Shown: positions 13,933-49,131 of the stretch, piece after piece
Layout of the letters: each line of letters begins with the position of its first letter
Numbering within the stretch: the stretch's first letter is position 1
Sequence record: PQ799574.1
From: Escherichia phage vB_EcoM_Maryam
Direction: 5' to 3' (one strand)
DNA: 64,000 nt
Notes under the pieces: model-generated
What the model saw: the letters and a program-made list of their open reading frames with translations, nothing else
What the model was told of the DNA's origin: nothing
The model's database searches: none
Program-made: the position numbers and the translations under genes

Positions 13933-13992
13933 ATGAAACTGTCTAAAGATACTACTGCTCTGCTTAAAAATTTCGCTACTATTAACTCGTAA
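13933..13992 (+). pseudogene. 45: sliding clamp gene 45, 5' fragment only (19 codons then TAA)
   Basis: MKLSKDTTALLKNFATINS matches recalled gp45 N-terminus; remainder of the ~228-aa gene absent. Confidence 0.8.
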
Positions 13993-14062
13993 TTAAAATC
14001 GCAGCAGTTTTTTCATTCAGAACATCGTTAGAAGCTTTGATGATGTAAGTTACTTTAGACAT
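13982..14062 (-). pseudogene. motA: motA (middle transcription activator), 5' fragment only (25 codons)
   Basis: Minus-strand MSKVTYIIKASNDVLNEKTAAILIT then S and stop; matches recalled MotA N-terminus; converges on the gene 45 fragment. Confidence 0.75.
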
Positions 14063-14159
14063 TTTGTTTCTCCGTAGTTGATAAGACTATAATACCATAA
14101 GTTAAAGCAGAAGTAAACTTTATTTTGAGCTCTTTTTCAAGAGCTCTGGTAAAAATTAC

Positions 14160-14375
14160 TTAGATTGATAGGTCTTTAATCTTAGCTATTAAAACAGCTT
14201 TTCCTTCACGAAGTTTTTCCAGTTTACGACCATTAGAGCCGCGAACTACTAAGGAATTTATCTCCACTTCCAACCAATTTAGTTTTTCAACTAGTTCTTT
14301 ACGTTTAGCATTCATGCCGGGTTTAACTTTACCGAAACGGGTGGTAGCGTTTTGAGTATTTTTCATCTTATTCAT
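14160..14375 (-). CDS. hypothetical basic protein between motA and 52
   Basis: ORF track 71 aa. Confidence 0.5.
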   Translation of the reverse strand: MNKMKNTQNATTRFGKVKPGMNAKRKELVEKLNWLEVEINSLVVRGSNGRKLEKLREGKAVLIAKIKDLSI

Positions 14376-14417
14376 TTTAATCTCCAGTTATTTTTCTGTA
14401 TCAGTGTTGATAGGGTA

Positions 14418-14447
14418 ATAGTACCATGGAATGCTTTGGTTGTAAAC
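14418..14447 (-). promoter_or_regulatory. T4-type early promoter (GTTTACA 17 nt TACTAT) on minus strand
   Basis: Reverse complement of 14418-14447 reads GTTTACA...TACTAT; upstream of ORF 14160..14375. Confidence 0.5.
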
Positions 14448-14469
14448 CGTTTTGTGAAAAAAATTTTAA

Positions 14470-14497
14470 ATAAAAAAGGGAGAGCCGAGGCTCTCCC
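14470..14497 (-). terminator. GGGAGAG / CTCTCCC hairpin with T-run on minus strand
   Basis: Perfect 7-bp inverted repeat 14478-14484 / 14491-14497; A-run on plus strand gives U-run in minus-strand RNA. Confidence 0.55.
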
Positions 14498-14502
14498 TAA
14501 AA

Positions 14503-15977: not shown

Positions 15978-15981
15978 AAAT

Positions 15982-17587: not shown

Positions 17588-17836
17588 AACTTTTTTAAAA
17601 ATATTCGTAATAAATGTGAATACCAATCACTACTGCCGAAACTTGCGCAACCCACCACGCACAAGCAATAAGTACAGAATTAAAAATTTTCATAATAACC
17701 TCATCACAAAAGTAAATGTTAAACAAATTACTGGAATACTAATTAACCAAACAAAACACCACCACAATGAACTCATAGTTCAATCTCAGCGATTTTCATT
17801 TTATTCTCCAAATCTGTATCAGTAGTTGATAGTTGT

Positions 17837-17866
17837 ATAGTACCACGGTCCTTGTGGTATGTAAAC
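17837..17866 (-). promoter_or_regulatory. T4-type early promoter (GTTTACA 17 nt TACTAT)
   Basis: Reverse complement reads GTTTACATACCACAAGGACCGTGGTACTAT; near-identical copy at 45026-45055. Confidence 0.5.
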
Positions 17867-17881
17867 CATTTTGTGAAATTT

Positions 17882-18439
17882 TTAAATGGAAAGATACCAT
17901 CCATTGTAGTTGCTTTTTCTTACAACCTTACGAAGGTCTTCTCTATCACCGATGAACTTCGGAGTGTACTGGATGACACCTGGATGAATTTCTTTAGTGT
18001 TGAATATAATTATACAGTCCGCGACCTGGTGATTTAGAATGGGCCCTAGATTTATTCCAGAACCATATGGATACTCTCCGCTGCATCCTGTTGTTACAGA
18101 AATCCAACGTGAGTCAGTTTGATGTGTCTTAACTTCTACACGGAGCCCGCAATATTTTGGATGTGCTAAAACATCCCATGCATATGTGTACGGATCATTG
18201 ACATCTTCTTGGCCTTTATTGACATATCCGCTTAGCCAATCTGCTACAAAAAACTCTGCGTACACAGCGATACGGCATCTTTCGATAACTTCTGTCTTAT
18301 CCTGATTTGGGTTTTGTTTTAAAGAGTATCTTGCAGTATCAGCAATTTTGACCTTCATTTCACCAGTCAAGTCACTGTTCGATAGGGTAAATGTCGGAAT
18401 CTGAAATAGTCTCTGTAGCCCCGGATTCGTTTTCTGCAT
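17882..18439 (-). CDS. denB: endonuclease IV DenB
   Basis: 185 aa, size and position (between ndd and rIIB) match recalled T4 DenB. Confidence 0.7.
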   Translation of the reverse strand: MQKTNPGLQRLFQIPTFTLSNSDLTGEMKVKIADTARYSLKQNPNQDKTEVIERCRIAVYAEFFVADWLSGYVNKGQEDVNDPYTYAWDVLAHPKYCGLRVEVKTHQTDSRWISVTTGCSGEYPYGSGINLGPILNHQVADCIIIFNTKEIHPGVIQYTPKFIGDREDLRKVVRKSNYNGWYLSI

Positions 18440-25493: not shown

Positions 25494-25775
25494 TTAATTA
25501 AACATTGGAGCGATACGTTTCAGAAGAGTAGCAGCACCTTTAGCGAATTTTACATCATGAAAAACAGTTTCTTCTTCTGTAACAACTCGAACTTTAATAT
25601 TTTCACAATCCCAATTTTTACGAACAATCTTCAAAAGCTGCAGTAAATCTTTACATTCAGCAATATCGATAACACATCCACGAGAATCTTCCATTATCGC
25701 ACGATAACCGTAAGCCATACCATAATCGTTGAAAGATTGCTCGATGATAATTAAGTTTTCCATTTTATTCTCCAA
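25494..25775 (-). CDS. hypothetical protein
   Basis: ORF track 93 aa. Confidence 0.5.
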   Translation of the reverse strand: MENKMENLIIIEQSFNDYGMAYGYRAIMEDSRGCVIDIAECKDLLQLLKIVRKNWDCENIKVRVVTEEETVFHDVKFAKGAATLLKRIAPMFN

Positions 25776-25860
25776 GTTGTTTTCTGTATCAGTAGTTGAT
25801 ATTGATATAGTACCATAATCAACTACTGATGTATATAGTTTTATGAAAAAATTTTAAACT

Positions 25861-32907: not shown

Positions 32908-32915
32908 ATTAATTC

Positions 32916-33539: not shown

Positions 33540-33743
33540 TCACGATTTATCCCCATAGATGTCTCTCATCAATTTAAGCGCTGAGCGTTCTAATTTCTTT
33601 TCTTTCTCAGCACTAATCATTGATTTCATCCATTCTTCCGATTCGTTCTGCATTTCTTTATTTGCTTGTTCAACCCAACCATCATCAATGTACATTGAGT
33701 TTGGTCTATTGAACCATTCAAGAATCTTCTTGAGAGCTTTCAT
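33540..33743 (-). CDS. hypothetical protein
   Basis: ORF track 67 aa. Confidence 0.45.
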
Positions 33744-34553: not shown

Positions 34554-34759
34554 TACAAAAAGCCTCTTTTGAATTCAACTTGTTTATCGCCATAATCATA
34601 TCGAATTTCTGCATTAAATTCAACAGAACCATCTGCGTACATCATAAATGAATGAACAACAACTTCTGTAGACCATGGTTGCAGTTCATATTTCTTCATT
34701 ACATGCCGTGAAATGATAATATCTAAATCTTCATTTGGTTTAATCCAACGATTTAACAT
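34553..34759 (-). CDS. hypothetical protein
   Basis: ORF track 68 aa. Confidence 0.45.
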   Translation of the reverse strand: MLNRWIKPNEDLDIIISRHVMKKYELQPWSTEVVVHSFMMYADGSVEFNAEIRYDYGDKQVEFKRGFL

Positions 34760-34830
34760 AATGCTCTCCTCTATAAGATAATTCTATTATACCATACTCA
34801 TTTTGGAAAGTAAACCGGTAAAATGAAAAA

Positions 34831-34850
34831 AGGACTCCCGAAGGAGTCCT
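34831..34850 (-). terminator. rho-independent terminator downstream of soc (8-bp stem, UUCG loop, U-run)
   Basis: AGGACTCC-CGAA-GGAGTCCT with A-run on plus strand (U-run in minus RNA). Confidence 0.65.
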
Positions 34851-34855
34851 TGAAA

Positions 34856-35101
34856 TTATTCACCAGTTACTTTCCACAAATCTTCGTTTGCAGTAATCCA
34901 TTCAGTACGTTGATTTTCTTCATATACTGTAGAATATGCTGCTTTTTCTGAAGGGAATATCTGATAATGAGCTCCAGAAATTTTGTGAACGTCAGAATAA
35001 AGAGGGAAAGCTACAGAAATTTCCTTTCCTTCAATTTTCTTATTTCCATCTAATTTCTGCTCAAACGTTTTGATATTAACATAACCGCGAGTACTAGCCA
35101 T
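34856..35101 (-). CDS. soc: small outer capsid protein Soc
   Basis: 81 aa MASTRGYVNIKTFEQKLDGNKKIEGKEISVAFPLYSDVHK... Confidence 0.9.
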   Translation of the reverse strand: MASTRGYVNIKTFEQKLDGNKKIEGKEISVAFPLYSDVHKISGAHYQIFPSEKAAYSTVYEENQRTEWITANEDLWKVTGE

Positions 35102-35131
35102 GTAATTCTCCTTTTATTTAAATTACATGAT

Positions 35132-35139
35132 TATTTATA
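35132..35139 (-). promoter_or_regulatory. late promoter TATAAATA upstream of soc
   Basis: Reverse complement of TATTTATA at 35132-35139, ~30 nt upstream of soc ATG. Confidence 0.6.
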
Positions 35140-35323
35140 ATAAATTCTCACGGAACGTTAAAATACCCAATTTTAGTTAATATAACAATATCGCCGTTAA
35201 TAATTACCGGAGAATAATCGGCTGGAGCATTAAATTTTCAATGGGCTCTAATATTATATCCATCAGAACCAAATGCTCGACTAGCCGGTCTCCCGGCTTT
35301 TTGCCATGCATAAAAATCAAATT

Positions 35324-35530
35324 TCATTTTGAATGCTCTATAATTAATTTTAAGGCTTCTTCACGCACCAACTTGCCTAATGGTATATGACCAGTTTTAA
35401 TTGTGTAAGCTTTGTGGAGCTGATTAGATAAGAGCTCGTATGTGAGCTCTTTGTCATAATTTTTAAATAGCTGGTCAATACGTTTCTTGCGGGCTTTCTT
35501 AAGCTGGCGTTTATTTAAACGAGCCATCAA
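35324..35530 (-). CDS. hypothetical basic protein
   Basis: ORF track 68 aa. Confidence 0.45.
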   Translation of the reverse strand: MMARLNKRQLKKARKKRIDQLFKNYDKELTYELLSNQLHKAYTIKTGHIPLGKLVREEALKLIIEHSK

Positions 35531-36045
35531 TAACCTCGGTCTTGACGAGCGAAGTTTTCAGCATTTTTCAGATAATAAAGTTTAAAGATTTCTTCAGCTG
35601 ACATTCCAAGAGCAATGAATTTATTCATGAAAAAGTGAAATTGGTCAATCAGTTCAAATTTAATTTCAAGCTGATCTTCAGGAGATAAGTCTTGAATTTT
35701 CTTGGATTGCATTTCAGAATAACGTTTCTTCCAAGGTTTCCATACGGCAGAAGCTTCTTTTTCACCATTACTCATACCACCAAGAGAAGTATATAGCTCG
35801 CGAGTTTCATCTGCGATATAATCGTCTTGGTTTCGCAGCCAAGTAAGAACTTCTCCTGCAGTTTCAAGTGAATCGGGATGACGATTTGTTTCTGGTTTAT
35901 CATTAGCCAAACGAATCTGTAAATGCCGCTGCATATCAAGCATAACCTGCAGTGGGTCAATATTGTGCATAATATTCTCAGCATATGCACGATTTGCTTT
36001 ATCAACACCTTCGATCAAATGAGCGCATTCATTAAAGTGAGCCAT
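35527..36045 (-). CDS. 56: dCTP pyrophosphatase gp56
   Basis: ORF track 35527..36138; true start MAHFNECAHLIEG... at 36045 preceded by AAGGAAA. Confidence 0.8.
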   Translation of the reverse strand: MAHFNECAHLIEGVDKANRAYAENIMHNIDPLQVMLDMQRHLQIRLANDKPETNRHPDSLETAGEVLTWLRNQDDYIADETRELYTSLGGMSNGEKEASAVWKPWKKRYSEMQSKKIQDLSPEDQLEIKFELIDQFHFFMNKFIALGMSAEEIFKLYYLKNAENFARQDRGY

Positions 36046-36116
36046 TATTTTTCCTTTCAATTCATGAGTTAGTAGATTAATTATACAATAAATATATAAA
36101 GCAATAAGGAGGACAT

Positions 36117-36317
36117 ATGGTACAAAAATTAATGGCACTTGTTAATGCCATCAAAGGTAATAAAAAGCGTATAGCTTTTACTATTTCTGCTATGGTAGGA
36201 ATTTTACTCTGGAACTTTATTCTATCACCTGTTGCAATTGCACATGGTATTAATATTCCAGTAGTTACTCTTGATACATTCGTAGATTTAGCATTTGCTT
36301 TAGTTGGGTTAATTTAA
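36117..36317 (+). CDS. small membrane protein encoded on opposite strand between genes 56 and 61
   Basis: 66 aa; strong SD AAGGAGG 7 nt before ATG; two hydrophobic segments. Confidence 0.4.
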   Translation: MVQKLMALVNAIKGNKKRIAFTISAMVGILLWNFILSPVAIAHGINIPVVTLDTFVDLAFALVGLI

Positions 36318-37342
36318 ATCTTAGCATATTTAGATAACCGCATTTTAGCCATCAACCCCTGGGCAATATTATTTTTCATATATTCCATAATTTGTTCAGG
36401 GGTTGCACCTTCCTTTCTAATCATATCATTAACATCTTTTGATTTCCAGGGAGATTTATCCCAAAACATAACCCTTTCTCCTGCATCAACTAATTTAGTC
36501 ATTCGCTTAATAGTGTCAGGATGACGAGGTTCATTATCTAAAACCCACACTCGTCTATCTTTAAATGGAACAACTTCTAGGTCTAATTGACCACCCGTAA
36601 TAGCTATACCATTTTCAATAAAAAGTGAATCTATAGGTCCTTCTAGAACATATACATCACCATCTTTAACTCGTTCGACTCCATATATTTTTGTTGCCTC
36701 AGGATAAGCTTTAATGGTGATATATTTTTGAGGAGCATCTTTCTTTAATGCACGTCCTTGAAAAGACTCAGCTTTTCCATTAGCATTATAAATTGGAATA
36801 ACAAGACGAGGCTCAGAAATTTCCTTTTTGTATGTTCCCGGTGCTATGCTATTAACTAATTTAGGCCATTCGGTTGTAAACCAAAGATATTTCCATTTAT
36901 CCTTTGGAATACAACGAGCTTTTACATATTTTATAATTGGATGGTCTTCCGCCAGTTTATCTAATCTAACACATGACGGAAGAGATTTAATTATTTTCTT
37001 CTCAGGTTGCTTAGGAAGTTCTTTAGGTTTTTCTACTGGACGACTTTTACCTTTTTCTTTTCTTATTTCAAAGATATACTCACGATATAAATCAGGTTCA
37101 AACTCCTTTAAATATATTCCGATTGGTGCATGATAATTACAGTTATAACAATGAATATTTCCTTCATTATTATCACCATAATACCATCCACGAGCTTTAT
37201 TCTGGTCGGTTTTTGAATCTCCACAAACAGGACATCTAAACCGCAATTTAAAAGTTGAACTATTATTTACTTGTGTGAATTTAGGTAAATGAGCCAATGC
37301 ACGATACGCAAACTCATTATCAATCCAAGGTATTGATGACAT
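36314..37342 (-). CDS. 61: DNA primase gp61
   Basis: 342 aa; zinc ribbon CPVCGDS...CYNCNYH plus TOPRIM. Confidence 0.9.
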   Translation of the reverse strand: MSSIPWIDNEFAYRALAHLPKFTQVNNSSTFKLRFRCPVCGDSKTDQNKARGWYYGDNNEGNIHCYNCNYHAPIGIYLKEFEPDLYREYIFEIRKEKGKSRPVEKPKELPKQPEKKIIKSLPSCVRLDKLAEDHPIIKYVKARCIPKDKWKYLWFTTEWPKLVNSIAPGTYKKEISEPRLVIPIYNANGKAESFQGRALKKDAPQKYITIKAYPEATKIYGVERVKDGDVYVLEGPIDSLFIENGIAITGGQLDLEVVPFKDRRVWVLDNEPRHPDTIKRMTKLVDAGERVMFWDKSPWKSKDVNDMIRKEGATPEQIMEYMKNNIAQGLMAKMRLSKYAKI

Positions 37343-37510
37343 TTTTACTCTTCTTTTTCTTTAGATTCCTCTTTTTTCTTTTTAGGAATCTGTTCAGGAC
37401 CTTTATTTACTACAGCACCTGATGTTGTTCCAGTAGAGATATTTTCAGGATTACCACCTGAATCTCCAGCGACCATATCTTCTTTAATAAATTCTTTATA
37501 TGTTTTCATA

Positions 37511-37867
37511 TTAACCTCTATTCATAAAAGCATTAAAAATTTGGTCATCAATAGATGGCGCAGTAATATTTTCTGCATCATTTAGCAAATCATTAATTTC
37601 ATCAGATAGCATAACACATGTACCTTTATTTCCTGTAATTGTTACTGCACAATTACGAACGTTTTCTTTATCAAATTTTAGGTTAATATTTTCGTAGTGA
37701 AAATCCTTTAATGCCGAATATATCTTTAAAATGAAATTGTCTTTTACTACAATAAACCCAACCTCACTATTAAAACGCGGTTCATGGAAACTGTAATAAA
37801 CCTTTTCATCTATAAAATCGTATGAAATTTTTTCCATTTTTAAATATGAAAATTCAGAACTATACAT
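37511..37867 (-). CDS. hypothetical protein (61.1-like), shares C-terminal DDQIFNAFMN(R/K)G with next ORF
   Basis: ORF track 118 aa. Confidence 0.5.
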   Translation of the reverse strand: MYSSEFSYLKMEKISYDFIDEKVYYSFHEPRFNSEVGFIVVKDNFILKIYSALKDFHYENINLKFDKENVRNCAVTITGNKGTCVMLSDEINDLLNDAENITAPSIDDQIFNAFMNRG

Positions 37868-37868
37868 A

Positions 37869-38510
37869 TTAACCTTTATTCATAAAAGCATTAAAAATTT
37901 GATCGTCAATAGAAACTTTTACTTTAGGCTGTTCTTCAAACGGTAATTCATATCCACATATTACAATTTTGTGATCGATACCAAAATACACAGAAGCAAT
38001 ATTATTAATATTATTTTCAGTGAAATCTAAATTAACATCAATATCTTTTTGACTAACGCTCAAAGGATAATTAATACGAATAATTCGATTATCTTTAACA
38101 AAGATTCCACCGACATACTCTGTGCTGCGTTTAAAGTTTACACGTTTCCTAAATGAAAAATATTCAGGTTCTTTATGGGCTCGACTCATAGGGCTTAAAG
38201 TGTATTCCGAATATGAAATATCAAATCCTACACCTTCAATATGAGCCAAAGTGTCATGATTAAACCAATTATAATCGTATGCCAAATCCATTAAATTGTA
38301 ATATGTGAAAGGCACCGGATTAACATCATGTGTTGTACCTTTAAAATCTGCCCAGGCAACGATTTCGTTATCTTTAACAATTACAAAAATTGTGTCAATA
38401 AGATATCCACGGTTATTTTCATCAGGCGTTATATTATAACATTGTGCATCAGGAAATTTACCGTATTTAAACGGCGGATTTTTGTGCATATAATAAATCA
38501 TATTATTCAC
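37869..38510 (-). CDS. hypothetical protein (61.2-like), two internal VKDN-type repeats
   Basis: ORF track 213 aa. Confidence 0.5.
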   Translation of the reverse strand: MNNMIYYMHKNPPFKYGKFPDAQCYNITPDENNRGYLIDTIFVIVKDNEIVAWADFKGTTHDVNPVPFTYYNLMDLAYDYNWFNHDTLAHIEGVGFDISYSEYTLSPMSRAHKEPEYFSFRKRVNFKRSTEYVGGIFVKDNRIIRINYPLSVSQKDIDVNLDFTENNINNIASVYFGIDHKIVICGYELPFEEQPKVKVSIDDQIFNAFMNKG

Positions 38511-38796
38511 CTGTGATTTCGGTTACGATATTTTTGTTATTAAAGTTTTTATCGCAATACAGAACATAATTATACTGCATTACACCACCAGACTTAAGTT
38601 GTTTTTGCACTTCAGCTTTCATTTTAGGACGATCGCGCTCAACGATATTCATAATATCCGCTTCAATTTGAGTTTCAACTTCAGTCTGATCTGCAGTCAT
38701 AGACCATTCACACAAATCTTTATCATATCCTGCCATAGCAGGCTGAGCAGCACAAGAAGCCAAAGTAAAAATTGTAGCAAAAATAAATTTTTTCAT
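38503..38796 (-). CDS. sp: periplasmic Spackle-like protein
   Basis: 97 aa with signal peptide MKKFIFATIFTLASCAAQPAMA; size and position match recalled T4 sp (61.3). Confidence 0.6.
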   Translation of the reverse strand: MKKFIFATIFTLASCAAQPAMAGYDKDLCEWSMTADQTEVETQIEADIMNIVERDRPKMKAEVQKQLKSGGVMQYNYVLYCDKNFNNKNIVTEITGE

Positions 38797-38856
38797 GATA
38801 ATCTCCTCAGTAGTTTATGTTTATATAGTATCTCAATTTCCAACAAAAGTAAACAG

Positions 38857-39156
38857 CTATTTTAAAACTTCTGCGTAATCACATGTTACAAACTGTTTCT
38901 CTAGCTTAACGATTTTACGAAAATACCTTTTATACTGACGAATCTGCCTCTTCGTAGGACGTACAGCAAACTTAATAAATTCCACTCGACCAAATGGAGG
39001 ACTTTCTTCTGCTGGAATATCTAACACCAATTCCCACGTATCTGCAATAAGTGCTTTGAATTGAGTATTTTTCCTGACGTTATACGGAGTAGGTTTAAAT
39101 AAAACAATATGCATATTATCCTCGGCAATCCACTTCGCACACTTTCTTGTCATCAA
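38857..39156 (-). CDS. hypothetical protein (61.4-like)
   Basis: ORF track 99 aa. Confidence 0.45.
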   Translation of the reverse strand: MMTRKCAKWIAEDNMHIVLFKPTPYNVRKNTQFKALIADTWELVLDIPAEESPPFGRVEFIKFAVRPTKRQIRQYKRYFRKIVKLEKQFVTCDYAEVLK

Positions 39157-39298
39157 TGAAAGCTTTAACTAATGCTTTATTAACTTCAGCATATTGAGTA
39201 GTAGCCCATTGAACGTCATCTTTCATCATTGTGATTTCTTTAGTAAACATGCTTTCATTCTTAAACCACCCCATAAAAACTACCTTTACCAATTCCAT
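39116..39298 (-). CDS. dmd: Dmd-like protein (60 aa)
   Basis: 60 aa directly downstream of gene 41, as recalled for T4 dmd. Confidence 0.5.
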   Translation of the reverse strand: MELVKVVFMGWFKNESMFTKEITMMKDDVQWATTQYAEVNKALVKAFIDDKKVCEVDCRG

Positions 39299-39356
39299 AA
39301 CAATCTCCTCATTTAACCAACAAGACTACTATACCATAGTCTTGTCAGCTTGTAAA

Positions 39357-40784
39357 CTAAAATTTTAATTCATTTGCCAAAGCATCTAACTGAGCTCGAG
39401 CTGATTCGTTTCTTTGATAGCGATTCTGTTCAGCCTGAATCTGTTGTGAACCTGCTACTTCACTCACTTCGGTTGGAGTAGAATCTTGTTCAATTTCTAC
39501 CCATTTTTGATTTCCTTTTTGAACACCCATCAAAAACTTATTCCACTTATTCTTATCACCATATCGTGATTTGATTTGCTTAATAAGTTGTTGTTCAGCA
39601 GCTGCTAGCTCCTCAGTTTCAATGACCGCAAGCATAAAATCAGCTGTTGCTGGAAGACCAGCAGATTCTGCAATATCGCTCATGTTAACATCGGAAGAGT
39701 CCCAAGCTTGTTTACCGACCTGTGCTGCAGTCCAAAGAACAGTTTCGGTTTCAACAGCCAGAGCACGCAATTCCTCTGCGATAGCTTTAACAGTTGTGTA
39801 ACTATTTTCTGAATAAACTCGGATGCGACAAGATTTACAAATACCCAGATAGTCGACAATAATGATTGTTGGAACAAAATTCTTTTTGAGCTTCAATTCA
39901 TTCAAGAGAGACCTGAATGTATTAGCATCTGCTCCACCAGTAGGGTACTGTTTAACGATTAAACGACCAAGAGTAGATTTCTCACGCCATTTTTCCATTT
40001 TTCCTTTATACTCAGCGTAAGAAATATGTCCATCATCAATATCGTCAAGAGAAACATCGAGCATGTTAGCATCAATACGTTTAGCACAGACTTCTTCGGC
40101 CATTTCCATGGAGATATAAAGAACGTTATGACCAAGCTGTAAATAATCCGCTGCTAATGAACACAATCCTAATGACTTACCAACGTTAACGCCAGCCATT
40201 AAAACGTTCAGTGTTCCTGTTTCAGCTCCGCCTTTTGTAATTTTATTCAAAATACGAAGTTTAAATGGAACTTTACGAGCTTTATTCATATAAGATAGCC
40301 AGCGTGCTTCGTAGTCATCCATCCAATCATGACCAACGTAGCTATCAAATGAAATTGATAATGCTTGGCGCATGATGTCAGGAATAGCACCAACATCCGG
40401 CATTTTCTTATTTCGTTTTTCCGGAGGAAGCTCAGCATTAGTTTGAATTTCGATTATTTTAGACGTAGCATTAAACATCGCCCTTTGCTGAACATATTTT
40501 TCTGTTTCTTTTACTAACCAGCTGTGGTCTTCCGGAGAATCAGCCAGTTTTGAAATAAGTGTTTTTACACCAGAATATTCTGTTTCAGTAAATGAACTAT
40601 TTTCTAATGCAACATTTAACGCATTAATAGATGGAACGCTATGGTACTCATTAACATGAGATTTAATTAATTTGAATGTATTTTTAGCTGGACCACTTTC
40701 AAAATATTCTGAATCCATATATGGCCAAACTTTTGAAAAATAAGCTTGATCAAATATAAGATGAGAAAGAATAATTTCTACCAC
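39357..40784 (-). CDS. 41: replicative DNA helicase gp41 (DnaB-like)
   Basis: 475 aa; Walker A GVNVGKS. Confidence 0.95.
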   Translation of the reverse strand: MVEIILSHLIFDQAYFSKVWPYMDSEYFESGPAKNTFKLIKSHVNEYHSVPSINALNVALENSSFTETEYSGVKTLISKLADSPEDHSWLVKETEKYVQQRAMFNATSKIIEIQTNAELPPEKRNKKMPDVGAIPDIMRQALSISFDSYVGHDWMDDYEARWLSYMNKARKVPFKLRILNKITKGGAETGTLNVLMAGVNVGKSLGLCSLAADYLQLGHNVLYISMEMAEEVCAKRIDANMLDVSLDDIDDGHISYAEYKGKMEKWREKSTLGRLIVKQYPTGGADANTFRSLLNELKLKKNFVPTIIIVDYLGICKSCRIRVYSENSYTTVKAIAEELRALAVETETVLWTAAQVGKQAWDSSDVNMSDIAESAGLPATADFMLAVIETEELAAAEQQLIKQIKSRYGDKNKWNKFLMGVQKGNQKWVEIEQDSTPTEVSEVAGSQQIQAEQNRYQRNESARAQLDALANELKF

Positions 40785-40793
40785 ACTTACTCC

Positions 40794-41138
40794 TTAAAAG
40801 AATTTAAACTTTTTCTTTGACCTTTTATTAAATGCATCTTGTAGTTGCATTGTAATACATTTTTCTACATGAGGAGCTAACTCAGCTTTTCTTTCTTGGT
40901 CAAGAACAGCAAAGTCCATTACAACCTTTCCATCAACCCAATCCAGTTTAGTTACATACACTATATGTGTAGAACCATCTTCTAGTTTAATGACAATCTC
41001 CTGGATAACATTTTCCATGGCAGATTTAATTATCTTAAGAGATTCATTAAAAAGACGTTCTTTTCTTTCTTCTTCCCCCTCCGAAGAGGGGGATTCATCG
41101 ATAATTTCTAGATCTAAATCTAAATCATCTTTATTCAT
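40794..41138 (-). CDS. 40: gp40 head vertex assembly chaperone
   Basis: ORF track 40794..41156; second ATG gives 114 aa without overlapping uvsX. Confidence 0.6.
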   Translation of the reverse strand: MNKDDLDLDLEIIDESPSSEGEEERKERLFNESLKIIKSAMENVIQEIVIKLEDGSTHIVYVTKLDWVDGKVVMDFAVLDQERKAELAPHVEKCITMQLQDAFNKRSKKKFKFF

Positions 41139-42312
41139 TAAATTCTTCCATATCACTTAACTGCTCGAGGTCAGTTTCTAAATCAGCAGCTGATTTACTT
41201 TTACTTTCTGAAGATTTAAATTTTTCAACTTTTGAGTTAATCAATTCATCAACTTCAGCTTCAACAATTTCATTACTATCAATAGCACCTAACTGATAAG
41301 CACGTTTAATAGCATCTCGGAATGGTTGATGCTTAAATAAAGGACCCCAGAATGTAGTGCAGTTGGTATCTTTTGCACGCCAAGATTTTTCTTCGCGAAT
41401 CATCTCGCCGGTTTCTTCGTCAAGAAATTCACGCGCATACCAACCATTTTTAGGTTTTACTACAAATCCTAATTCTAGAGCCATATCTAACAATCCAGAA
41501 TAAGGATCAATACCACCGTCAAATTTAACATCAATAAAGAATTTACTTTTTTCTTTAACGGTACGAGATTTTTCTACATTTAGAACAAATTGATACCCCT
41601 GAAGATCAGAACCATCTTTAATCTGACGCTTACCGATAATGAATACTGTATCAGCCGAATACATTACGCCTGTACCACCTGTCATCACGGTTTTACTAAA
41701 CATTTCAATTGTTTCAATTGTATGGTTAACCGCAACACATGGAATATTTTTAATGCTAAAGTAAGGAGTAACGATACGGAATAATGACTTCAGTGATTTA
41801 GCACGAGTCATATCTGCCACAGATTTTTCATTTAAGGCATCTTCCGTTTCTTTCTTAGAAGCCATATTACCGATTGAGTCGATGAATACAATAACCTTTT
41901 CACCACGCTCAATAGCTTCAAGCTGATTCACCATATCAATTTTCAGCTGTTCAACTGACTGAATCGGCGTATGAATTACTCGTTCCGGGTCAACTCCCAT
42001 GGATCGCAAATAAGCTGGAGTAATACCAAATTCACTATCATAGAATAGACAAACCGCGTCAGGATATTTGTTCAAATATGCCGCAACCATAGTCAAAGAC
42101 ATATTTGATTTAAAGTGTTTAGAAGGCCCTGCGAAAATAGTTAAACCAGACTGCATACCGCCATCAATCGCACCAGAAATAGCGATATTAAGCATTGGGA
42201 TTTTTGTGCGGATTACATCCTTTTCATTAAAGAATTTAGATGTAGTCAGTTCAGCAGTCATTTTAGAAGTGGAAGCTTTAATCAAACGGGATTTTAAATC
42301 TGCAATAGACAT
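41131..42312 (-). CDS. uvsX: UvsX recombinase (RecA-like)
   Basis: 393 aa; RecA-fold motifs; recalled T4 UvsX. Confidence 0.95.
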   Translation of the reverse strand: MSIADLKSRLIKASTSKMTAELTTSKFFNEKDVIRTKIPMLNIAISGAIDGGMQSGLTIFAGPSKHFKSNMSLTMVAAYLNKYPDAVCLFYDSEFGITPAYLRSMGVDPERVIHTPIQSVEQLKIDMVNQLEAIERGEKVIVFIDSIGNMASKKETEDALNEKSVADMTRAKSLKSLFRIVTPYFSIKNIPCVAVNHTIETIEMFSKTVMTGGTGVMYSADTVFIIGKRQIKDGSDLQGYQFVLNVEKSRTVKEKSKFFIDVKFDGGIDPYSGLLDMALELGFVVKPKNGWYAREFLDEETGEMIREEKSWRAKDTNCTTFWGPLFKHQPFRDAIKRAYQLGAIDSNEIVEAEVDELINSKVEKFKSSESKSKSAADLETDLEQLSDMEEFNE

Positions 42313-42389
42313 TCATTTTTTCCATAGGCATCATTATATTTTCCTCACTGGTTAAAGATAGAGTAATTATAACATAATAAATTTAGGCA

Positions 42390-43238
42390 TTAATCAACTG
42401 CTATTGGATGAATAGCATTAAACTTATGAAATGCTTCTGATTTTTCTTTGCGCGAAACGCACATGCGAAGAACCTTTAATGGCTCGTCTTCTTCACCCAA
42501 CGATTTTCGTTTTTCAATATTAGAAGTTTTCCAACGAGCTTGCTCTGGAAACTCTCTATTGATTTGCTCAAGCGCTCTATTATGTTTAGAATTACTACGA
42601 ATTGAACTACACCCGCCAGGAGCTTGTGCTTTTCCAGATACAACCAGATATTTGAACAAGGCCAAATGCGGATAACCTTGATTAATTAAATTGAGAAATG
42701 CATACATATCTTCGCACAAATCAATTTTTCCATACCCAATTTGTTCTGTCGTAAGTTTTCCGAGGTCATACCATGTATTCGTGAATCCATATGAATTTTC
42801 ACGATAATTACCCCAAGATGAAGTAATTTTAAAAATTGGTAGGCGAGCATGACCGTGATAATACCCGCAATCCATGGCATCTTCAACGTATTGAATCAAT
42901 TCATAGAACTGTTCACGGGTTAATTGATTGACTTTATCTACACAACGACGGTCATCTCTTTTTCGCATTGAACTCATACGAATAGTAGTATCATCGTCAA
43001 TCATCCAGATTCGTTGACCTGCATACATATCAGTAATTGCTTTACGAGTACCGGCAATTCCGTTTACATCATCAGGAATAGTTATAATTTTAGCTCTAGA
43101 CCCATAGGCATCATAATAAGCTTTTTCTTCATGTTCACGCACTACAATATGGGGTTCATAATCAGTCGGAAACATATCAAGGGCAGAAACTGCCCCGACA
43201 CGCTGATAACTTGGAATTACGAATTGAATCATTTCCAC
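42390..43238 (-). CDS. putative glucosyltransferase at the beta-gt locus (T2/T6-type beta-glucosyl-HMC alpha-glucosyltransferase-like)
   Basis: 282 aa with DDD motif; lies between uvsX and 42; does not resemble recalled 351-aa T4 beta-gt. Confidence 0.5.
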   Translation of the reverse strand: MEMIQFVIPSYQRVGAVSALDMFPTDYEPHIVVREHEEKAYYDAYGSRAKIITIPDDVNGIAGTRKAITDMYAGQRIWMIDDDTTIRMSSMRKRDDRRCVDKVNQLTREQFYELIQYVEDAMDCGYYHGHARLPIFKITSSWGNYRENSYGFTNTWYDLGKLTTEQIGYGKIDLCEDMYAFLNLINQGYPHLALFKYLVVSGKAQAPGGCSSIRSNSKHNRALEQINREFPEQARWKTSNIEKRKSLGEEDEPLKVLRMCVSRKEKSEAFHKFNAIHPIAVD

Positions 43239-43969
43239 TCACCGTTATAATCTTTTTTCACAATATGAGTTTCGCCAGTATTCCACCAATGATCAACCAA
43301 GTAAAAATGACGAGAATATACATGAAGACTTCCAACATTCCATATAATAGAACCTGCTTTATACTGACGAGTTGAATCGCCGGCATTCAAATCAGATACT
43401 AATTTATCTAATACGTATTTTTGCCATGCATAATCATTACGGAATCCGAAGACCACGTCATTTGAGCGCATGCTTACTACTGCATTGACTTTCTTATCAC
43501 GAATCAGGTACTGTACTGTATTAGTACACATGAAATCTGACATACCATCTTTATTGTAGTCAAATTGCATGGATGGACGAGTATAAATCATGATACCACG
43601 TCGAGAATCAGGATTTTGACCAAGTTCAGCTAAACACATATCATACTGGGCATAGTTATCTTCTGACCAAATAGCCCAACCATAATTCGAGTTAATTTCG
43701 CCTTTAGAAGATGCTACCTGCTGCCAAATCTTTGGTGTTTCGCCTGGAATATCTTTAACAAACAAGCTCTTAGATTTATACCATTCAAGTTCACGCTGAA
43801 TGTATTCATCATTAAGAGCGCCAAAAATAAAGGGTTCATCTGCTACAAATGATGCGCCAATAATTTCAATAGTTTTAACGCCAGTTTTATCAACTACGAA
43901 ATCTTTTTCCTTTAATGCAGTTCCCAAATAAAAACGGATTTCTTCAACTGTCATAGAGTCATTAATCAT
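43229..43969 (-). CDS. 42: dCMP hydroxymethylase gp42
   Basis: 246 aa; thymidylate-synthase-like fold. Confidence 0.9.
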   Translation of the reverse strand: MINDSMTVEEIRFYLGTALKEKDFVVDKTGVKTIEIIGASFVADEPFIFGALNDEYIQRELEWYKSKSLFVKDIPGETPKIWQQVASSKGEINSNYGWAIWSEDNYAQYDMCLAELGQNPDSRRGIMIYTRPSMQFDYNKDGMSDFMCTNTVQYLIRDKKVNAVVSMRSNDVVFGFRNDYAWQKYVLDKLVSDLNAGDSTRQYKAGSIIWNVGSLHVYSRHFYLVDHWWNTGETHIVKKDYNGEWK

Positions 43970-44122
43970 TTAAACCTCAATTGATACATTCATATTTAAC
44001 TTGTAACAGTAATAAACCCCAACCTAAAATAATAGTCGGAATCATAAGAGGAACCGTTACACTATAGTATATACTTATTATAATCATCAAGATTAAAAGC
44101 AACACTTCTATAATTTTGCTTT

Positions 44123-44374
44123 TCATTCCTTCTCTCTGATGATAATTACTTGATTTGGCTGTGCAGACTTTTTAGTTTCACCCGCAATTGACCAAATAAA
44201 TGTAATAAACCAACCAATAATTGACCAGTTAAACAGCAAAGACGTGAAAAAGATTCCTACTGTCGATTTTGACCCACGCATCAAGGCGATAAACCATGGA
44301 AGCATGTATATAATAATAGCCAACACACCTGAAACTAAAACCATAAAAATTGAACCTGCTACTAAAGTTTCCAT
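44123..44374 (-). CDS. imm: immunity (superinfection exclusion) membrane protein Imm
   Basis: 83 aa, two TM segments. Confidence 0.8.
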   Translation of the reverse strand: METLVAGSIFMVLVSGVLAIIIYMLPWFIALMRGSKSTVGIFFTSLLFNWSIIGWFITFIWSIAGETKKSAQPNQVIIIREKE

Positions 44375-44381
44375 GTTTTCC

Positions 44382-44762
44382 TCACTTAGTCAAATTTTTT
44401 ACGCATGAATTATAAGAATTCACTACATACTCCATCGGAGCATTTTTACCGGTACGCCATTGGTAATTATTAGCCCAATTTGCCCAAAGCTCGGCGCAGT
44501 AGTTTTCAATTTTTTCTTCGCGTGTAATTACATCCGAATTACGATATGCTTGAGCAGATTCATCTGGACGAATAGCTTCGTCAAAATTTGCCTGCATTTG
44601 TTCTACTGTTTGCTTTGGAGCTTCTTTATAACACTTGACATTAGGATTATAAAACTTGCTTGAACAGTTTACAATTTTTCCTACATCAGACTGATTTACT
44701 ACCGGTCCTTGAGCCACACAACCAGTAAGACCTAATGCAATAACCAAAATAGCGATTTTCAT
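44382..44762 (-). CDS. putative lipoprotein adjacent to imm
   Basis: 126 aa; signal peptide with lipobox LTGC. Confidence 0.5.
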   Translation of the reverse strand: MKIAILVIALGLTGCVAQGPVVNQSDVGKIVNCSSKFYNPNVKCYKEAPKQTVEQMQANFDEAIRPDESAQAYRNSDVITREEKIENYCAELWANWANNYQWRTGKNAPMEYVVNSYNSCVKNLTK

Positions 44763-44772
44763 AATAATTTCC

Positions 44773-45021
44773 TCAAATGCAAGTAGTAATTACTCCAGTA
44801 GTGCTTATGCAGGTATTACCCATTTGCACACCTAAAGATCCATTTGTATTCACATGAAGATTATCATCAATTTTAACTGATATTTTACCATTAGTGTGAA
44901 TAACGGTGCTAGATTTAATCACAGGTTGAGTATCATTTTCAACACTAATAAATGGAACTGCTACTAATGCAACTAAACAAACTGCTAAGCATCCCATAAC
45001 AATTTTCATTTTATTCTCCAA
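44773..45021 (-). CDS. secreted/membrane small protein
   Basis: ORF track 82 aa; hydrophobic N-terminus. Confidence 0.45.
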   Translation of the reverse strand: MENKMKIVMGCLAVCLVALVAVPFISVENDTQPVIKSSTVIHTNGKISVKIDDNLHVNTNGSLGVQMGNTCISTTGVITTCI

Positions 45022-45025
45022 ATCT

Positions 45026-45055
45026 GTATCAGTAGTTGATAGTTGTATAGTACCA
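45026..45055 (-). promoter_or_regulatory. T4-type early promoter (GTTTACA 17 nt TACTAT)
   Basis: Reverse complement reads GTTTACAAGACTGTTCTTCTGTGGTACTAT. Confidence 0.5.
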
Positions 45056-45163
45056 CAGAAGAACAGTCTTGTAAACAGTTTTGTGAAAATTTTTTAGGGA
45101 ATTCTAAAGGTCCAGAATCATCTGTTTTTCATAAGTATAGATTTATATTACTTGTATGAAAAA

Positions 45164-45179
45164 GGGACCCGGAGGTCCC
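45164..45179 (-). terminator. GGGACC-loop-GGTCCC hairpin with U-run downstream of gene 43
   Basis: Inverted repeat read from sequence; A-run on plus strand. Confidence 0.55.
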
Positions 45180-45192
45180 TAGATTTATTCTA

Positions 45193-47888
45193 TCAGCCAA
45201 ACAGGAAGTCTAACGAAGCTTTTTCTTCATAGTCCATACCAGCCGATTCACACATGCCTGCAAGCGGTTTAACAAACGATTTTTGGAACAAAGTTGAGTA
45301 GTCAATCCAAGATAGTACATCAGAACGAATTTCTTTTGGAAGTTCTGTACCCGACGGCCAAGCAATGCACTTGTCGCCAAATGGATTTCCTTCACGTAAT
45401 GGAAGAACCATTACCTTATTTCCATCCAAAATTGGAGCTACACCCAGACCACTAACAGCTCGACGATAAGTTAGCACACCACGAATATGGAACGGGCATT
45501 TAAATCCTGGCCAACCTTTATCATCATATTTCGCTATATCGTTCGCAGTTTTTACTTCAGCAATAACTTTATAGTCAAGTTGACGATATTCTTTCTCGAA
45601 GTTCTTGTAATATTCTTGGACAGACTCTTCACCTTCCTGAAGAATACGACGAATACTTTCTTCAAGAGCTTCTTGAACTGCTTTAGGCGTTGAACTTTGC
45701 TGAGTTTCCATACCCATGATTTTTAGATGCGGTTCAGCAAAACGCTTATCTTCCATATCATATACGTTCAGAGCATAACGCTTTTTCGCTTTCCAAAATC
45801 CACCAACGCCCTTTGAACCAAGTGGAGGGCAAGAAATAGCTTCACGGTCCATATGCATCAGATGCTCGCGGTTATTCATATAATCACATAACTCACGATA
45901 TGCAACATCAATCATAGGTTCCATCTTTTTCTTACCGAACTGATTCATGAATTCAACTAAATCGTTCTGCTCTTTGAATCGGTCAAGACCAACTTTTTCA
46001 ATAACTTTATCTACACAAACATATACCGAATCAGTATCACCTGCTGCAATGAAATCTTCGCCATTAGTTCCGCACACTTTATTCAGATACTCATTAATTT
46101 TACGAGCAATCCACTGAATACCAACTTGGCCGAAAATTGTGATAGCAGTAGCATTTCGCAAATCATAGTAACGGAAATGAATATTACCAAGAGCACCGTA
46201 AAGGCTGTTAATAAGAATTTTACGGTTCAGCTGATTTGTATTAGCAAGTGTAGCCGCTTTTTCACATTCTTCAATCAAACTATTGAGAACAGATTCAGTA
46301 TAATTCGATAGTTCATTTAAGAAATCATCACTGAACTTAACATATCGTTCAACTTCAGGTTTAGTTGAACAAGACCCTGCGCCTTTCATAATAATCTTTT
46401 TAATAGCTTCGGCATTCATTTCTTCAGCGAACATTTTCTTTTTCCAATCTTTACGCTGGAAAAATACTTTAGCGATTTCCTTTGGAATGATACCTTCTTG
46501 ATGCTTATCGTACATCCATCCATTCGGAGAACAAGAATATTCATCACTCGGTTTAGGAGCTGTTCCTGCGATATATTCATGAATTGGATGAACTTTAAAC
46601 TGACCACGAATAGTCTCAGGACTAATGTTAACCTGACGAATAATGCTCGGATACAGAGACGTCAAGTCAAAACTCATAATATATCGACGAGCAATTGGTT
46701 TAGGTTCAAATACAAATGCACCCGGAAAACTCTGTTTAACGTGCGAACCTTGTTGAGGAATAACCTTATGTTCACCTTTCAATGAGTTAAAAATAATAGC
46801 ATCCCAGGTTTTAATAGGACTCATTACACCAGAAAAAGGCATTTTAGCGTAATAAGACATACTTAAAACTAGATCGATAAACCCGCGAATTTTATCAATT
46901 GCTTGAACTGATTCTACGTCAATGATGTTATAACTAATGTATCGTTGATGATTAGTCTCACGAAGTTTATTAATAGGACCGTCGTATGGTAATTTACCTT
47001 TTTTGGTTTCATGCTGAGCAACTGATTCCAAAGAGAATGACGGCAAATTAGTAAATGCGAATTTCTTATACAAATCTAAATAATCAAGAATAGATACGCC
47101 ATCAATAGAATAAATTTCTTTGCTACCGTACATATTTTGGATAAGTTTAGATTTTACTCGACCGATTGGAGAGAAGCGTTTCATACTACGTTCACCGAGA
47201 ACCATTTTAACGCGATTCATGATATACGGAACGTCAAATCCCTCAATATTCCAACCAGTAAAAATAGCAGGTCGTTTCTGTTCCCAGAGATTGATATATT
47301 CCATGAGCATATCACGCTCATTATCGAATGGCATATAAATTACTCGGTCAAGAATTTCTTGAGGAACTTCATCACCACCTTCACAGTCAAGCTTAGCAGC
47401 TAACTTTGCATCCCATTTTGATACTGAACCATACATTGAATTCAAAAGGTCGAAAACATAAAAACGATCATCAATTGAATCGTAATGAGTGATAGCATCA
47501 ATTTCATATTCAGCTTTCATTGGGTCAGGAAATTTATCACCAGTAACCTCAATGTCACAGTTAGCTACACGAACAAATTTTCGGTCATAAACAATTTCTG
47601 AACCGTATGTATCACTGATAAAGCGAGTTTAAAATCGTTCATACCGAGAGCTTCGAGACCGATGTCTTCCATTCGTTTCATCCAATCTCGAGCATCTTTC
47701 ATTGATGGAAATTTTTGAGGAGCGCAGTTTTTACCATAGATGTCTTTGTACTTTGACTCTTCCTTACAATGCCTAAACATAGTTGGAAGATATTCTACTT
47801 CACGAGTACGTTCCTTTCCATTTTCATCAATATAACGTTCAACAATATTATTTCCGACTGTTTCAATAGAGATATAAAATTCTTTCAT
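45193..47888 (-). pseudogene. 43: DNA polymerase gp43 interrupted by a 1-nt frameshift near 47619
   Basis: N-terminal 84 codons in ORF 47565..47888, remainder in ORF 45193..47520 in another frame; the second frame is open upstream and reads ISDTYGSEIVYDRKFVRVANCDIEVTGDKFPDPMKAEY. Confidence 0.85.
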
Positions 47889-47930
47889 AGATATTCCTTA
47901 GTTTATAGCCCGAGTTATTAGGCTCTTGAT
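47889..47930 (-). promoter_or_regulatory. probable gene 43 translational operator / 5' leader hairpin
   Basis: Leader contains AGAGCCUAAUAACUCGGGCU-type hairpin just upstream of SD AAGGAA; T4 gp43 is known to autoregulate via such an operator. Confidence 0.3.
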
Positions 47931-47948
47931 ATATTATACTCCAAATAA

Positions 47949-47962
47949 GGGGCCGAAGCCCC
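47949..47962 (-). terminator. GGGGC-UUCG-GCCCC hairpin
   Basis: Same 16-nt core as at 51729-51744. Confidence 0.5.
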
Positions 47963-47968
47963 TTTGCT

Positions 47969-48256
47969 TTAAATTTCTATTGTACGACGCGATATAACGG
48001 ACTTGCCATCTGTATTTGTGGTTTTGATAATCGCATGAAATGCGCGTTGGCGTGGGTAAACTAATCGTTGGAATTCTTTTTGGAATTCTATTTGTTTATC
48101 TTCCGGGAGGTCAAAAACCAGTTGGGTAGAAGACAGACCATATGTTTGTTTTAGATTTTCGAATATTAGAAAAGCTTCGGTAAACTGAATCTCTGATTGT
48201 GTCATATAATTTACCTTAATTACCAATCGTATATTTAGGAACGAGTTTCCATTCAT
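47969..48256 (-). CDS. hypothetical protein between regA and 43
   Basis: ORF track 95 aa; start likely internal. Confidence 0.45.
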   Translation of the reverse strand: MNGNSFLNIRLVIKVNYMTQSEIQFTEAFLIFENLKQTYGLSSTQLVFDLPEDKQIEFQKEFQRLVYPRQRAFHAIIKTTNTDGKSVISRRTIEI

Positions 48257-48584
48257 GTTTTTGTTTAAAAGAAATAACTCGGAAGTTATTAGTTAAATCT
48301 TTCATAAAAGTTCTTTGACCAGGAACGATTTCAATCAGTCCCCAATCTTCTAACAACCATGCAATCGAATCACGACGAACTTCATCTTCTTCTGTCATTT
48401 CAACTTGGCGACCATCCATACGAAGCATTTCTTTAAAATGAACGATATAGTATAGTCCTTTTTTCTGAAGAATATGACAGGACTGATACAGAACTTTATC
48501 TTTATTATTAGCAATTCCCATACGAGTCAAAGTTTCTTTTACTTTCAGAAAATCTTCAGGTTTTTTAAGAGTAATTTCAATCAT
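48216..48584 (-). CDS. regA: translational repressor RegA
   Basis: 122 aa MIEITLKKPEDFLKVKETLTRMGIANNKDKVLYQSCHILQKKG... Confidence 0.9.
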   Translation of the reverse strand: MIEITLKKPEDFLKVKETLTRMGIANNKDKVLYQSCHILQKKGLYYIVHFKEMLRMDGRQVEMTEEDEVRRDSIAWLLEDWGLIEIVPGQRTFMKDLTNNFRVISFKQKHEWKLVPKYTIGN

Positions 48585-48585
48585 T

Positions 48586-49131
48586 TTACCATTCCAATGC
48601 TAGTTTTTTGAGTTGTTTCTGTTCTTTTACGTTCTTAGTCACTTCTTTCAAAAAATCATCCGTGACTAAACCTTTTAGTTCTTTTAATACTAAAGGAAGT
48701 TTTCCATTTTTAGTAAGAATTGATTTATAGTTAATTGCATCATTTGTATTAACTTGATACCACTTAGCAAGTAACTTAATAATCAATACTTCGGTGGAAT
48801 CTTCAACCAGTTTTGCCCATTTACCGTATCTTTTACCACGAGGAACTGCAGCCATTAGATAATTAAAATGAGCTTCATCACTTAAGCCTGATCCAATTAA
48901 ATTCATAGCATATACAGCTGGCATGCACTCTGGAAATTGTGATAATGCATTTTCAACCATGAATTTTGAATAATCTTTTTGAGCAATAGAGCATTTAGTT
49001 TTATTATTGATAGCTCCAATTATTTCAAAAAATTCATTTTCAGCTTTTTCTTTAAAAGAATCAGCAGCGGATTGGACAGCTGTCCAATCTTTTGAATACC
49101 AAGCAAGTAGGAAAAGATTATGTATGCCCAT
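48586..49131 (-). CDS. 62: clamp loader small subunit gp62, N-terminus atypical
   Basis: 181 aa; from [15 protein letters not shown] onward matches recalled gp62, first ~9 residues MGIHNLFLL do not. Confidence 0.75.

Follow-up and report, generated by a model that had tools for sequence, protein, structure and literature searches.

The stretch of DNA analysed here (64,000 nt, hereafter the window) contains a block of approximately 35 kb that lies backwards between two correctly oriented flanks, with sequence missing at both joins. This arrangement is very probably an artefact of assembly or record construction, in which contigs were joined end to end, the middle one backwards, and the gaps between them were left unmarked. 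We deduced this indirectly, from sequence comparison rather than from reads, an assembly graph or the source record. The artefact is favoured since an independent record reads through the left join, both joins are blunt and unique, the cuts fall in the middle of open reading frames (ORFs), essential genes are lost, the cut ends are associated with polymorphic sites, and gene 43 is frameshifted. The absence of gp44, arn.3 and arn.4 from the first 96 kb of the source, the part that could be reconstructed, points in the same direction.

Layout of the window

The phage is a close relative (95-99%) of canonical Tequatrovirus genomes, and the window is approximately 97% identical to T4. The nearest record is PV290051.1 (vB_EcoT_BCU-2), annotated as a River Chelt isolate. 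BLAST and dot-plot comparisons with PV290051.1, DalCa and T4 split the window into three segments, A, B and C. Segment A (1-13988, plus strand) runs from nrdC through 47, 46 and rpbA into the first 56 nt of gene 45, where it ends at T4 position 32548; this would be the end of the first contig. Block B (13989-49106, 35,118 bp) carries its early genes on the minus strand, reversed relative to A and C, in the order motA', motA.1, 52, ac, ndd, denB, rIIB, rIIA, 39 ... dda, modA/B, 61, 41, uvsX, 42, imm, 43, regA and 62'. It is collinear with T4 from 163529 (74 nt into motA) through 168903/1, the rII map origin, to 30862 in gene 62, and its internal order is that of natural T-even phages. Segment C (49107-64000) resumes at approximately T4 162025, inside arn.2, and returns to the orientation of A. 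Its order is canonical, as judged in part from the PE37 annotation: arn.2', arn.1, arn (49542-49820), asiA.1 and asiA (49982-50254) on the plus strand, followed by t, 38, 37, 36, 35 and 34 on the minus strand and rnh, dsbA, 33 and 59 on the plus strand.

The ORF strands and the GC skew both switched at approximately 14.0 kb and 49.1 kb. The original prediction of an inverted block of about 35 kb between correctly oriented flanks, with arn and asiA on the plus strand, was thus borne out by ORF strands, GC skew and BLAST, and the dot-plots against T4, DalCa and PV290051.1 confirmed that the interior is collinear with T4 and reversed relative to the flanks. Its boundaries had been given as 13990 and 49107, each one base off from the 13989 and 49106 obtained by BLAST. 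Since the breaks are sharp to the base and lie between stretches 95-100% identical to known phages, the pattern is not a product of chance. The window contains no unknown-base characters (0 N), and no N run marks either gap.

The two joins and the missing sequence

At the left junction (13988..13989), nucleotide 56 of gene 45 is joined to the reverse complement of motA nucleotide 74. Compared with the parental contexts in PV290051.1, T4, teqsoen, DalCa, NR1 and PE37, this join is blunt, with 0 nt of microhomology. The remnant of gene 45, the sliding clamp gene (13933-13992, plus strand), keeps native codons 1-18, that is, 56 nt up to 13988, and its frame then enters block B and stops, reading MKLSKDTTALLKNFATINS before the stop codon. 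On the other side, the 74-nt 5' remnant of motA (13989-14062, minus strand) encodes MSKVTYIIKASNDVLNEKTAAILIT, followed by S and a stop codon from segment A.

At the right junction (49106..49107), the reverse complement of gene 62 nucleotide 44 is joined to the interior of arn.2, again bluntly and with 0 nt of microhomology; microhomology was assessed with three to four relatives on each side of the junctions. Gene 62 without its first 43 nt (48586-49131, minus strand; native part 48586-49106) is fused by chance to an ATG in segment C, and a chimeric 181-aa ORF results. Only residues 15-187 of gp62 are covered in the window. The 3' remnant of arn.2, approximately its last 49 codons (49107-49256, plus strand), contains an internal CAA to TAA change at 49236-49238.

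In T4 coordinates, the sequence missing between gene 62 and gene 45 is 30863-32547, approximately 1.69 kb (1685-1686 bp in three relatives), which removes the start of gene 62, all of gene 44 and most of gene 45. The sequence missing between motA and arn.2 is 162026-163528, 1503-1664 bp depending on the relative, which removes most of motA, arn.4, arn.3 and half of arn.2. Together, approximately 3.2-3.35 kb is lost at the two joins, gene 44 included, and each of the four cuts interrupts an ORF (45, motA, 62 or arn.2). The earlier estimate of about 1.6 kb for the first gap was right; on the motA side a loss had also been correctly proposed, but its size, put at about 1 kb or more, was underestimated. 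The similar gap lengths measured against DalCa (1686 and 1664 bp) suggested a symmetric mechanism, which was dismissed as coincidence when other relatives gave 1503-1506 bp for the second gap.

No inverted-repeat pairs with arms at 13989 and 49106 were found in a search across 12.5-50.6 kb. With neither microhomology nor inverted repeats at the junctions, a homology-driven inversion was ruled out. Scans for promoters and terminators around the junctions revealed nothing relevant to the origin of the arrangement. A physically real 35-kb inversion of the entire motA-rII-39-43-62 early and replication region would have to arise by homology-independent end joining, in the River Chelt phage or in a helper-dependent defective variant from its lysate, with 44, 45 and motA provided by a co-infecting helper or encoded at another place in the genome; we consider this very unlikely.

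The junctions were searched for in other records. The left junction was spanned by none of the 952 phage records that matched the region around it, and the right junction by none of 769. Each part alone is ordinary: the first 25 kb of block B is collinear in 237 phage records and segment C in 138. Junction k-mers were found neither in IMG/VR nor in a metagenome collection or a genome collection, and an exact look-up of the chimeric 181-aa gp62 in public gene and protein collections returned nothing. Recurrence of the arrangement in independent isolates, which the original prediction had raised, was therefore observed in none of the phage records, IMG/VR, the metagenomes or the genomes.

These searches bear on the idea of a viable natural phage with a 35-kb inversion whose genes 44, 45 and motA and 5' end of 62 were relocated beyond the window. 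Natural inversions are on record for the Tevenvirinae: in Morganella phage MP1 and in Pm5461, a multi-kilobase T-even-type block (>10 kb) is reversed relative to T4 (PMC5384007). That block holds baseplate and outer-capsid genes, occurs in two phages that were isolated independently and consists of intact genes, with no loss mentioned (PMC5384007). In contrast, the junctions in the window are unique, four ORFs are cut, essential genes are lost, and the block consists of early and replication genes; gene content is not preserved, and the breakpoints do not fall between genes or modules as in a natural inversion of the MP1 type. With 45, 62, motA and arn.2 cut in mid-ORF, extra duplications would be required for intact copies to exist elsewhere. 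The visible sequence comprises 96 kb of a genome type of roughly 166 kb, which leaves room for relocated genes, but source positions 1-96,000 contain none of the missing genes. When gp44, gp45, gp62, MotA and Arn.2-4 were compared by tblastn with the reconstructed 96 kb, only shortened remnants were detected, and gp44, arn.3 and arn.4 had no match at all. Relocation within the visible sequence was accordingly rejected, and the relocation proposed earlier could concern only the part of the source beyond it. Moreover, PV290051.1 carries an intact gene 45 in its canonical place, and none of the collections searched contains the junctions. A viable inversion is therefore highly improbable.

Genes 45, 44 and 62 are experimentally essential, and T4 without them cannot propagate unless a helper plasmid is provided (PMC8121543). 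The original prediction that the loss concerns essential genes was thus confirmed for 44 and 45. Since the phage was isolated on E. coli, the loss of 45, 44 and 62 argues against a real genome of this form. The same locus is deleted in the published T4del phage, which is likewise non-viable without complementation (PMC8121543), and an engineered genome had been among the readings offered; a clamp/clamp-loader deletion platform like T4del would be one of this kind. T4del is a clean swap of the whole locus for a Cas12a target in T4 (PMC8121543), whereas the window has other boundaries and also shows an inversion together with a further deletion. The Cas12a landing site was not found, even with three mismatches allowed, by which the T4del reading is effectively refuted. 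Furthermore, the homology arms of T4del end at approximately T4 30,190 and 32,922, compared with window cuts at 30,862 and 32,548, in mid-codon; the window is not T4 and its nearest record is a river isolate; no scar or marker is present; and neither the inversion nor the motA-arn loss would serve any design. The probability of an engineered origin is vanishingly small.

An independent record and the cut ends

Positions 32001-45988 of PV290051.1 correspond to window 1-13988 in a single 13,988-bp HSP with 100% identity, and the ORF coordinates of the two differ by exactly 32,000. At the position of the left breakpoint, PV290051.1 runs on through a complete gene 45 (228 codons, 45933-46619, in its canonical place) and a further 254 nt into gene 44, and this continuity from 45 to 44 is collinear with T4 and DalCa. 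The left junction, and this junction only, is thus contradicted by PV290051.1. The record is 46,924 bp long and is labelled a complete genome, but it is clearly a fragment of a genome type of approximately 166 kb. The only literature match for BCU-2 or the River Chelt phage was a conference abstract, and this dealt with Enterobacter phages that are unrelated.

We then compared the cut ends among relatives. Three of the window's four cut ends have a first missing base that varies among relatives, and the same signature is found at the undisputed contig end of PV290051.1 itself. The gene 62-side end of the window and the start of PV290051.1, the sixth end, are without it among the relatives used. 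The Poisson-binomial probability of at least three of four was 3e-4 for the window ends, for a signature noticed post hoc, and that of at least four of six was 8e-5 for all six ends, in a test devised after the pattern had been seen. A polymorphic first missing base is expected where contigs stop at branch points between variants, but not after illegitimate recombination or a random cut.

The cut-end signature also hints at a mixed population, and this would suit a real defective genome in the lysate, with co-infecting wild-type helper phage supplying gp44, gp45, gp62 and MotA; T4 without 45, 44 and 62 does propagate when these genes are given in trans (PMC8121543). However, four breaks and two blunt rejoinings would be required, all without homology, to produce one inversion and two deletions in a single genome. 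Recombination with the helper within the 35-kb inverted region should yield aberrant products and strong counter-selection, a point of reasoning rather than of data. The same material shows normal continuity from 45 to 44 in PV290051.1, and there is no precedent in roughly 770-950 related records. We assign this possibility only a very slight probability.

Other kinds of artefact were also considered, namely chimeric reads or ligation chimeras in a long-read assembly, or manual or in-silico editing. Ligation chimeras and cut-and-paste editing also produce blunt, non-homologous joins, and the position of the left join, 936 bp before the end of the PV290051.1 contig, would be compatible with them. 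Nevertheless, two independent chimeras would be needed to mimic an exact in-place inversion, and random points would hardly fall beside polymorphic sites at three of four ends. Such an origin is unlikely.

Probable contig misjoining and its consequences

The misjoining of contigs could have proceeded as follows. At least three contigs of a de novo assembly (A, B and C) would have been joined directly without gap markers, the middle contig B being kept in the wrong orientation, and the two apparent deletions would be stretches between contigs that were unassembled or dropped. Most likely, two or more sequence variants coexisted in the lysate, the assembly graph split at the sites where they differ, and contigs ended there. 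The source would probably be a sibling of the vB_EcoT_BCU-2 assembly or a later version of it. We infer both the mixed sample and the route by which A, B and C came to be ordered. In the phage itself, the genes most likely follow the canonical T-even order, and 45, 44, 62 and motA are most likely intact.

Several points weigh against misjoined contigs, among them the post hoc nature of the cut-end signature and the two ends that lack it. The terminus of PV290051.1 lies beyond the left join, so the source was not made simply by appending sequence to that exact contig, and one has to suppose another assembly run or output at the unitig level. In addition, random order and orientation of contigs would rarely mimic an in-place inversion (a few percent, on a rough estimate), which calls for the further assumption that the contigs were ordered to some extent against a reference and that a reverse-complement was missed.

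The window resembles scaffolding errors of draft genomes that were deposited as complete, with mis-oriented contigs and unmarked gaps, in its blunt, non-homologous joins, its perfect blocks, the loss exactly at the joins, the unique junctions, and the contradiction of the left join by an independent contig. It differs from them in that no N run is present and the left contig stops 936 bp before the end of the PV290051.1 contig. Of the four readings offered originally, namely a defective genome, an engineered genome, a mis-assembly and relocated genes, mis-assembly was singled out by the read-through of PV290051.1, the unique blunt joins and the contig-end signature, while the engineered reading failed on the missing T4del site, the differing boundaries and a background that is not T4.

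A further lesion was found in gene 43, which encodes the DNA polymerase. A 1-bp deletion at 47621 (minus strand) splits it into ORFs at 47565-47888 and 45193-47520, and tblastn showed a frame change at codon 89/90, where DalCa reads GATATAAG and the window GATAAAG. Either the sequence is in error here or the phage would carry one more lethal lesion; the frameshift is consistent with an imperfect sequence.

The association between cut ends and polymorphic sites offers a reusable check that needs no reads: where the first base missing at a suspicious join is one that varies among relatives, the join resembles a contig end produced by a mixed sample. A record built in this way would mislead analyses of synteny, pangenomes and essential genes, as well as automated scans for rearrangements. 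For phage biology, the arrangement carries no significance; the matter is one of data quality.

Layout of the three segments

The window derives from a Tequatrovirus (T4-like) genome; both the ORF strand and the GC skew flip at approximately 14.0 kb and 49.1 kb. Segment boundaries were set from BLAST dot-plots against T4, phage DalCa, and PV290051.1, the record of Escherichia phage vB_EcoT_BCU-2. The plots resolved three segments with the middle one reversed, in agreement with the original prediction of an inverted block at 13990-49107 with losses at both ends, whose coordinates were within one base at each end. Segment A (1-13988, plus strand) runs from nrdC to 47, 46, and rpbA and breaks off 56 nt into gene 45. 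Block B (13989-49106, 35,118 bp), with its early genes on the minus strand, is collinear with T4 from 163529 (74 nt into motA) through the map origin (rIIB/rIIA) to 30862, where gene 62 lacks its first 43 nt. Segment C (49107-64000) starts inside arn.2 (T4 ~162025) and then follows the canonical order of arn, asiA, t, 38-34, rnh, 33, and 59. Compared with the canonical T-even order, block B is an in-place reversal. The first gap (T4 30863-32547, 1685-1686 bp) takes out 44 entirely, together with the start of 62 and most of 45; the second (T4 162026-163528), which measures 1503-1664 bp according to the relative used, removes arn.3, arn.4, the 5' half of arn.2, and 562 nt of the 636-nt motA. There are no Ns in the window.

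The junctions and their occurrence elsewhere

Three or four relatives (among PV290051.1, T4, DalCa, teqsoen, NR1, and PE37) supplied the native context against which each of the four cut ends was compared. The left join (13988|13989) and the right join (49106|49107) were both blunt, with no base in common at either join in these comparisons, and no inverted repeat with arms at both junctions was found. All four cut points lie inside ORFs, leaving stubs of 19 codons for gene 45 and 25 codons for motA, a gene 62 remnant devoid of a start codon or ribosome-binding site and fused by chance to an ATG of segment C, and an arn.2 remnant consisting of its 3' part. At 49236-49238, the arn.2 remnant has TAA, compared to CAA (Gln) in four relatives, six codons ahead of the native stop.

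Among the phage records matching the respective regions, none of 952 spanned the left junction and none of 769 the right; a collinear arrangement was seen for the first 25 kb of block B in 237 records and for segment C in 138. Junction-spanning 28-38-mers were absent from IMG/VR, and no match was obtained for the left-junction k-mer in the metagenome collection or for the right-junction k-mer in the genome collection. The gene index and the 15-billion-protein collection contained conserved control proteins from all three segments, but neither the chimeric gp62 nor the split gp43 products.

Natural inversions do occur in Tevenvirinae, as in Morganella phages MP1 and Pm5461 for a baseplate/outer-capsid block of >10 kb (PMC5384007). 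However, that inversion is common to two independently isolated phages and no gene loss was reported for the reversed structural genes (PMC5384007), whereas no recurrence was found for the window junctions and genes are lost at both joins. The window was tested for recurrence, for kept gene content, for breakpoints lying between genes, and for repeats or microhomology where the segments meet, and displayed none of them; its arrangement instead fits the profile of a scaffolding error.

PV290051.1 (River Chelt, UK; 46,924 bp) is titled a complete genome, yet it clearly covers only a fragment (gp5 to gene 44) of a T4-type genome of ~166 kb. Window positions 1-13988 are 100% identical to it at a coordinate offset of exactly 32,000, and the window is therefore 32001-96000 of a longer record sharing its first 45,988 bases with PV290051.1. 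This longer record most likely stems from the same phage, as a later or a sibling assembly. At the left breakpoint, PV290051.1 does not pass into motA but reads on through an intact gene 45 (45933-46619) and extends 254 nt into gene 44; this stretch is ~99% identical to T4 and DalCa and collinear with both. The left junction is directly contradicted by PV290051.1.

Gene content of the window

A T4 strain with genes 45, 44, and 62 removed still infects, but needs a helper plasmid to propagate (PMC8121543). In a tblastn search of the first 96 kb of the source, as reconstructed, T4 gp44, gp45, gp62, MotA, and Arn.2-4 matched only truncated remnants. A viable phage with the missing genes relocated beyond the window is very improbable. 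A 1-bp deletion at 47621 (minus strand, codon ~89; GATATAAG in DalCa, GATAAAG in the window) splits gene 43, the essential DNA polymerase, into ORFs 45193-47520 and 47565-47888. No other uncompensated frameshift was found in the conserved essential genes of the window, and this one is probably an error in the sequence. A phage grown on ordinary E. coli could not have the sequence as written. That a real, helper-dependent defective genome was present in the lysate is improbable, and an engineered strain can practically be dismissed: the landing site of T4del, a published T4 strain whose 45-44-62 locus is replaced by a Cas12a target, is absent, the deletion boundaries are unlike those of T4del, and the identity to T4 is only ~97%.

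A ~95-bp conserved intergenic cassette occurs in four copies (14375-14475, 17788-17888, 25757-25858, and 45000-45100; 76% mean column identity), none of them at the junctions. Its minus-strand sequence reads as a T4 early promoter (GTTTACA ... TATACT-like) with a leader, ending in GGAGAATAAAATG; repeated early-promoter elements of this type are already known. The 213-aa ORF at 37869-38510 (minus strand), not present in DalCa at the matching position, matches Pfam AdfA (Anti-DarT factor A, gp61.2; E = 1e-137) and represents an anti-defence gene within a hypervariable region. Between gene 59 and the gene 32 position of relatives lies a 210-aa ORF (63050-63682, plus strand) with no Pfam match, which is not in DalCa; PE37 carries an ORF of equal length at the corresponding position, with the annotation homing endonuclease. 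The tail-fibre tip region (gp37, gp38; 50942-55061, minus strand) diverges strongly from DalCa, with a T2-type gp38 adhesin (Pfam GP38, E = 9e-71) and a gp37 whose exact sequence had no match in the protein collection. This divergence is ordinary host-range cassette variation.

Contig-like ends and the probable origin of the arrangement

Graph-based assemblers stop contigs exactly where variants diverge. Of the four cut ends, three have a first missing base that varies among relatives: c/t follows the gene 45 end, g/a precedes the motA end, and c/t precedes the arn.2 end. The corresponding base at the gene 62 end is invariant. A variable site also comes directly after the terminus of PV290051.1 at 46924, an undeniable contig end, while none adjoins its start. 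With local polymorphism rates of 1.5-15%, the Poisson-binomial P was 3e-4 for at least three of four ends and 8e-5 for at least four of six, for a pattern spotted after the fact. The pattern is specific, though post hoc. Illegitimate recombination, random chimeras, and arbitrary edits have no cause to stop at variable sites, and an artefact of another kind (chimeric reads or manual editing, for instance) is unlikely. These observations suggest that two or more variants were present in the lysate that was sequenced, and that the assembly broke at variant patches in 45-44-62 and motA-arn before the remaining contigs were joined.

Mis-assembly is very likely, with at least three contigs pasted together. 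The contigs would have been put in roughly correct order with no gap markers between them, contig B would have been left un-reverse-complemented to give the apparent inversion, and the apparent deletions would be inter-contig stretches that stayed unassembled. Since the left join falls 936 bp short of the PV290051.1 end, one has to assume another assembly run or output at the unitig level; since purely random ordering would rarely mimic an in-place inversion, some reference-guided ordering is implied. Among the interpretations first offered, mis-assembly alone is supported. The arrangement is almost certainly not a real biological feature.
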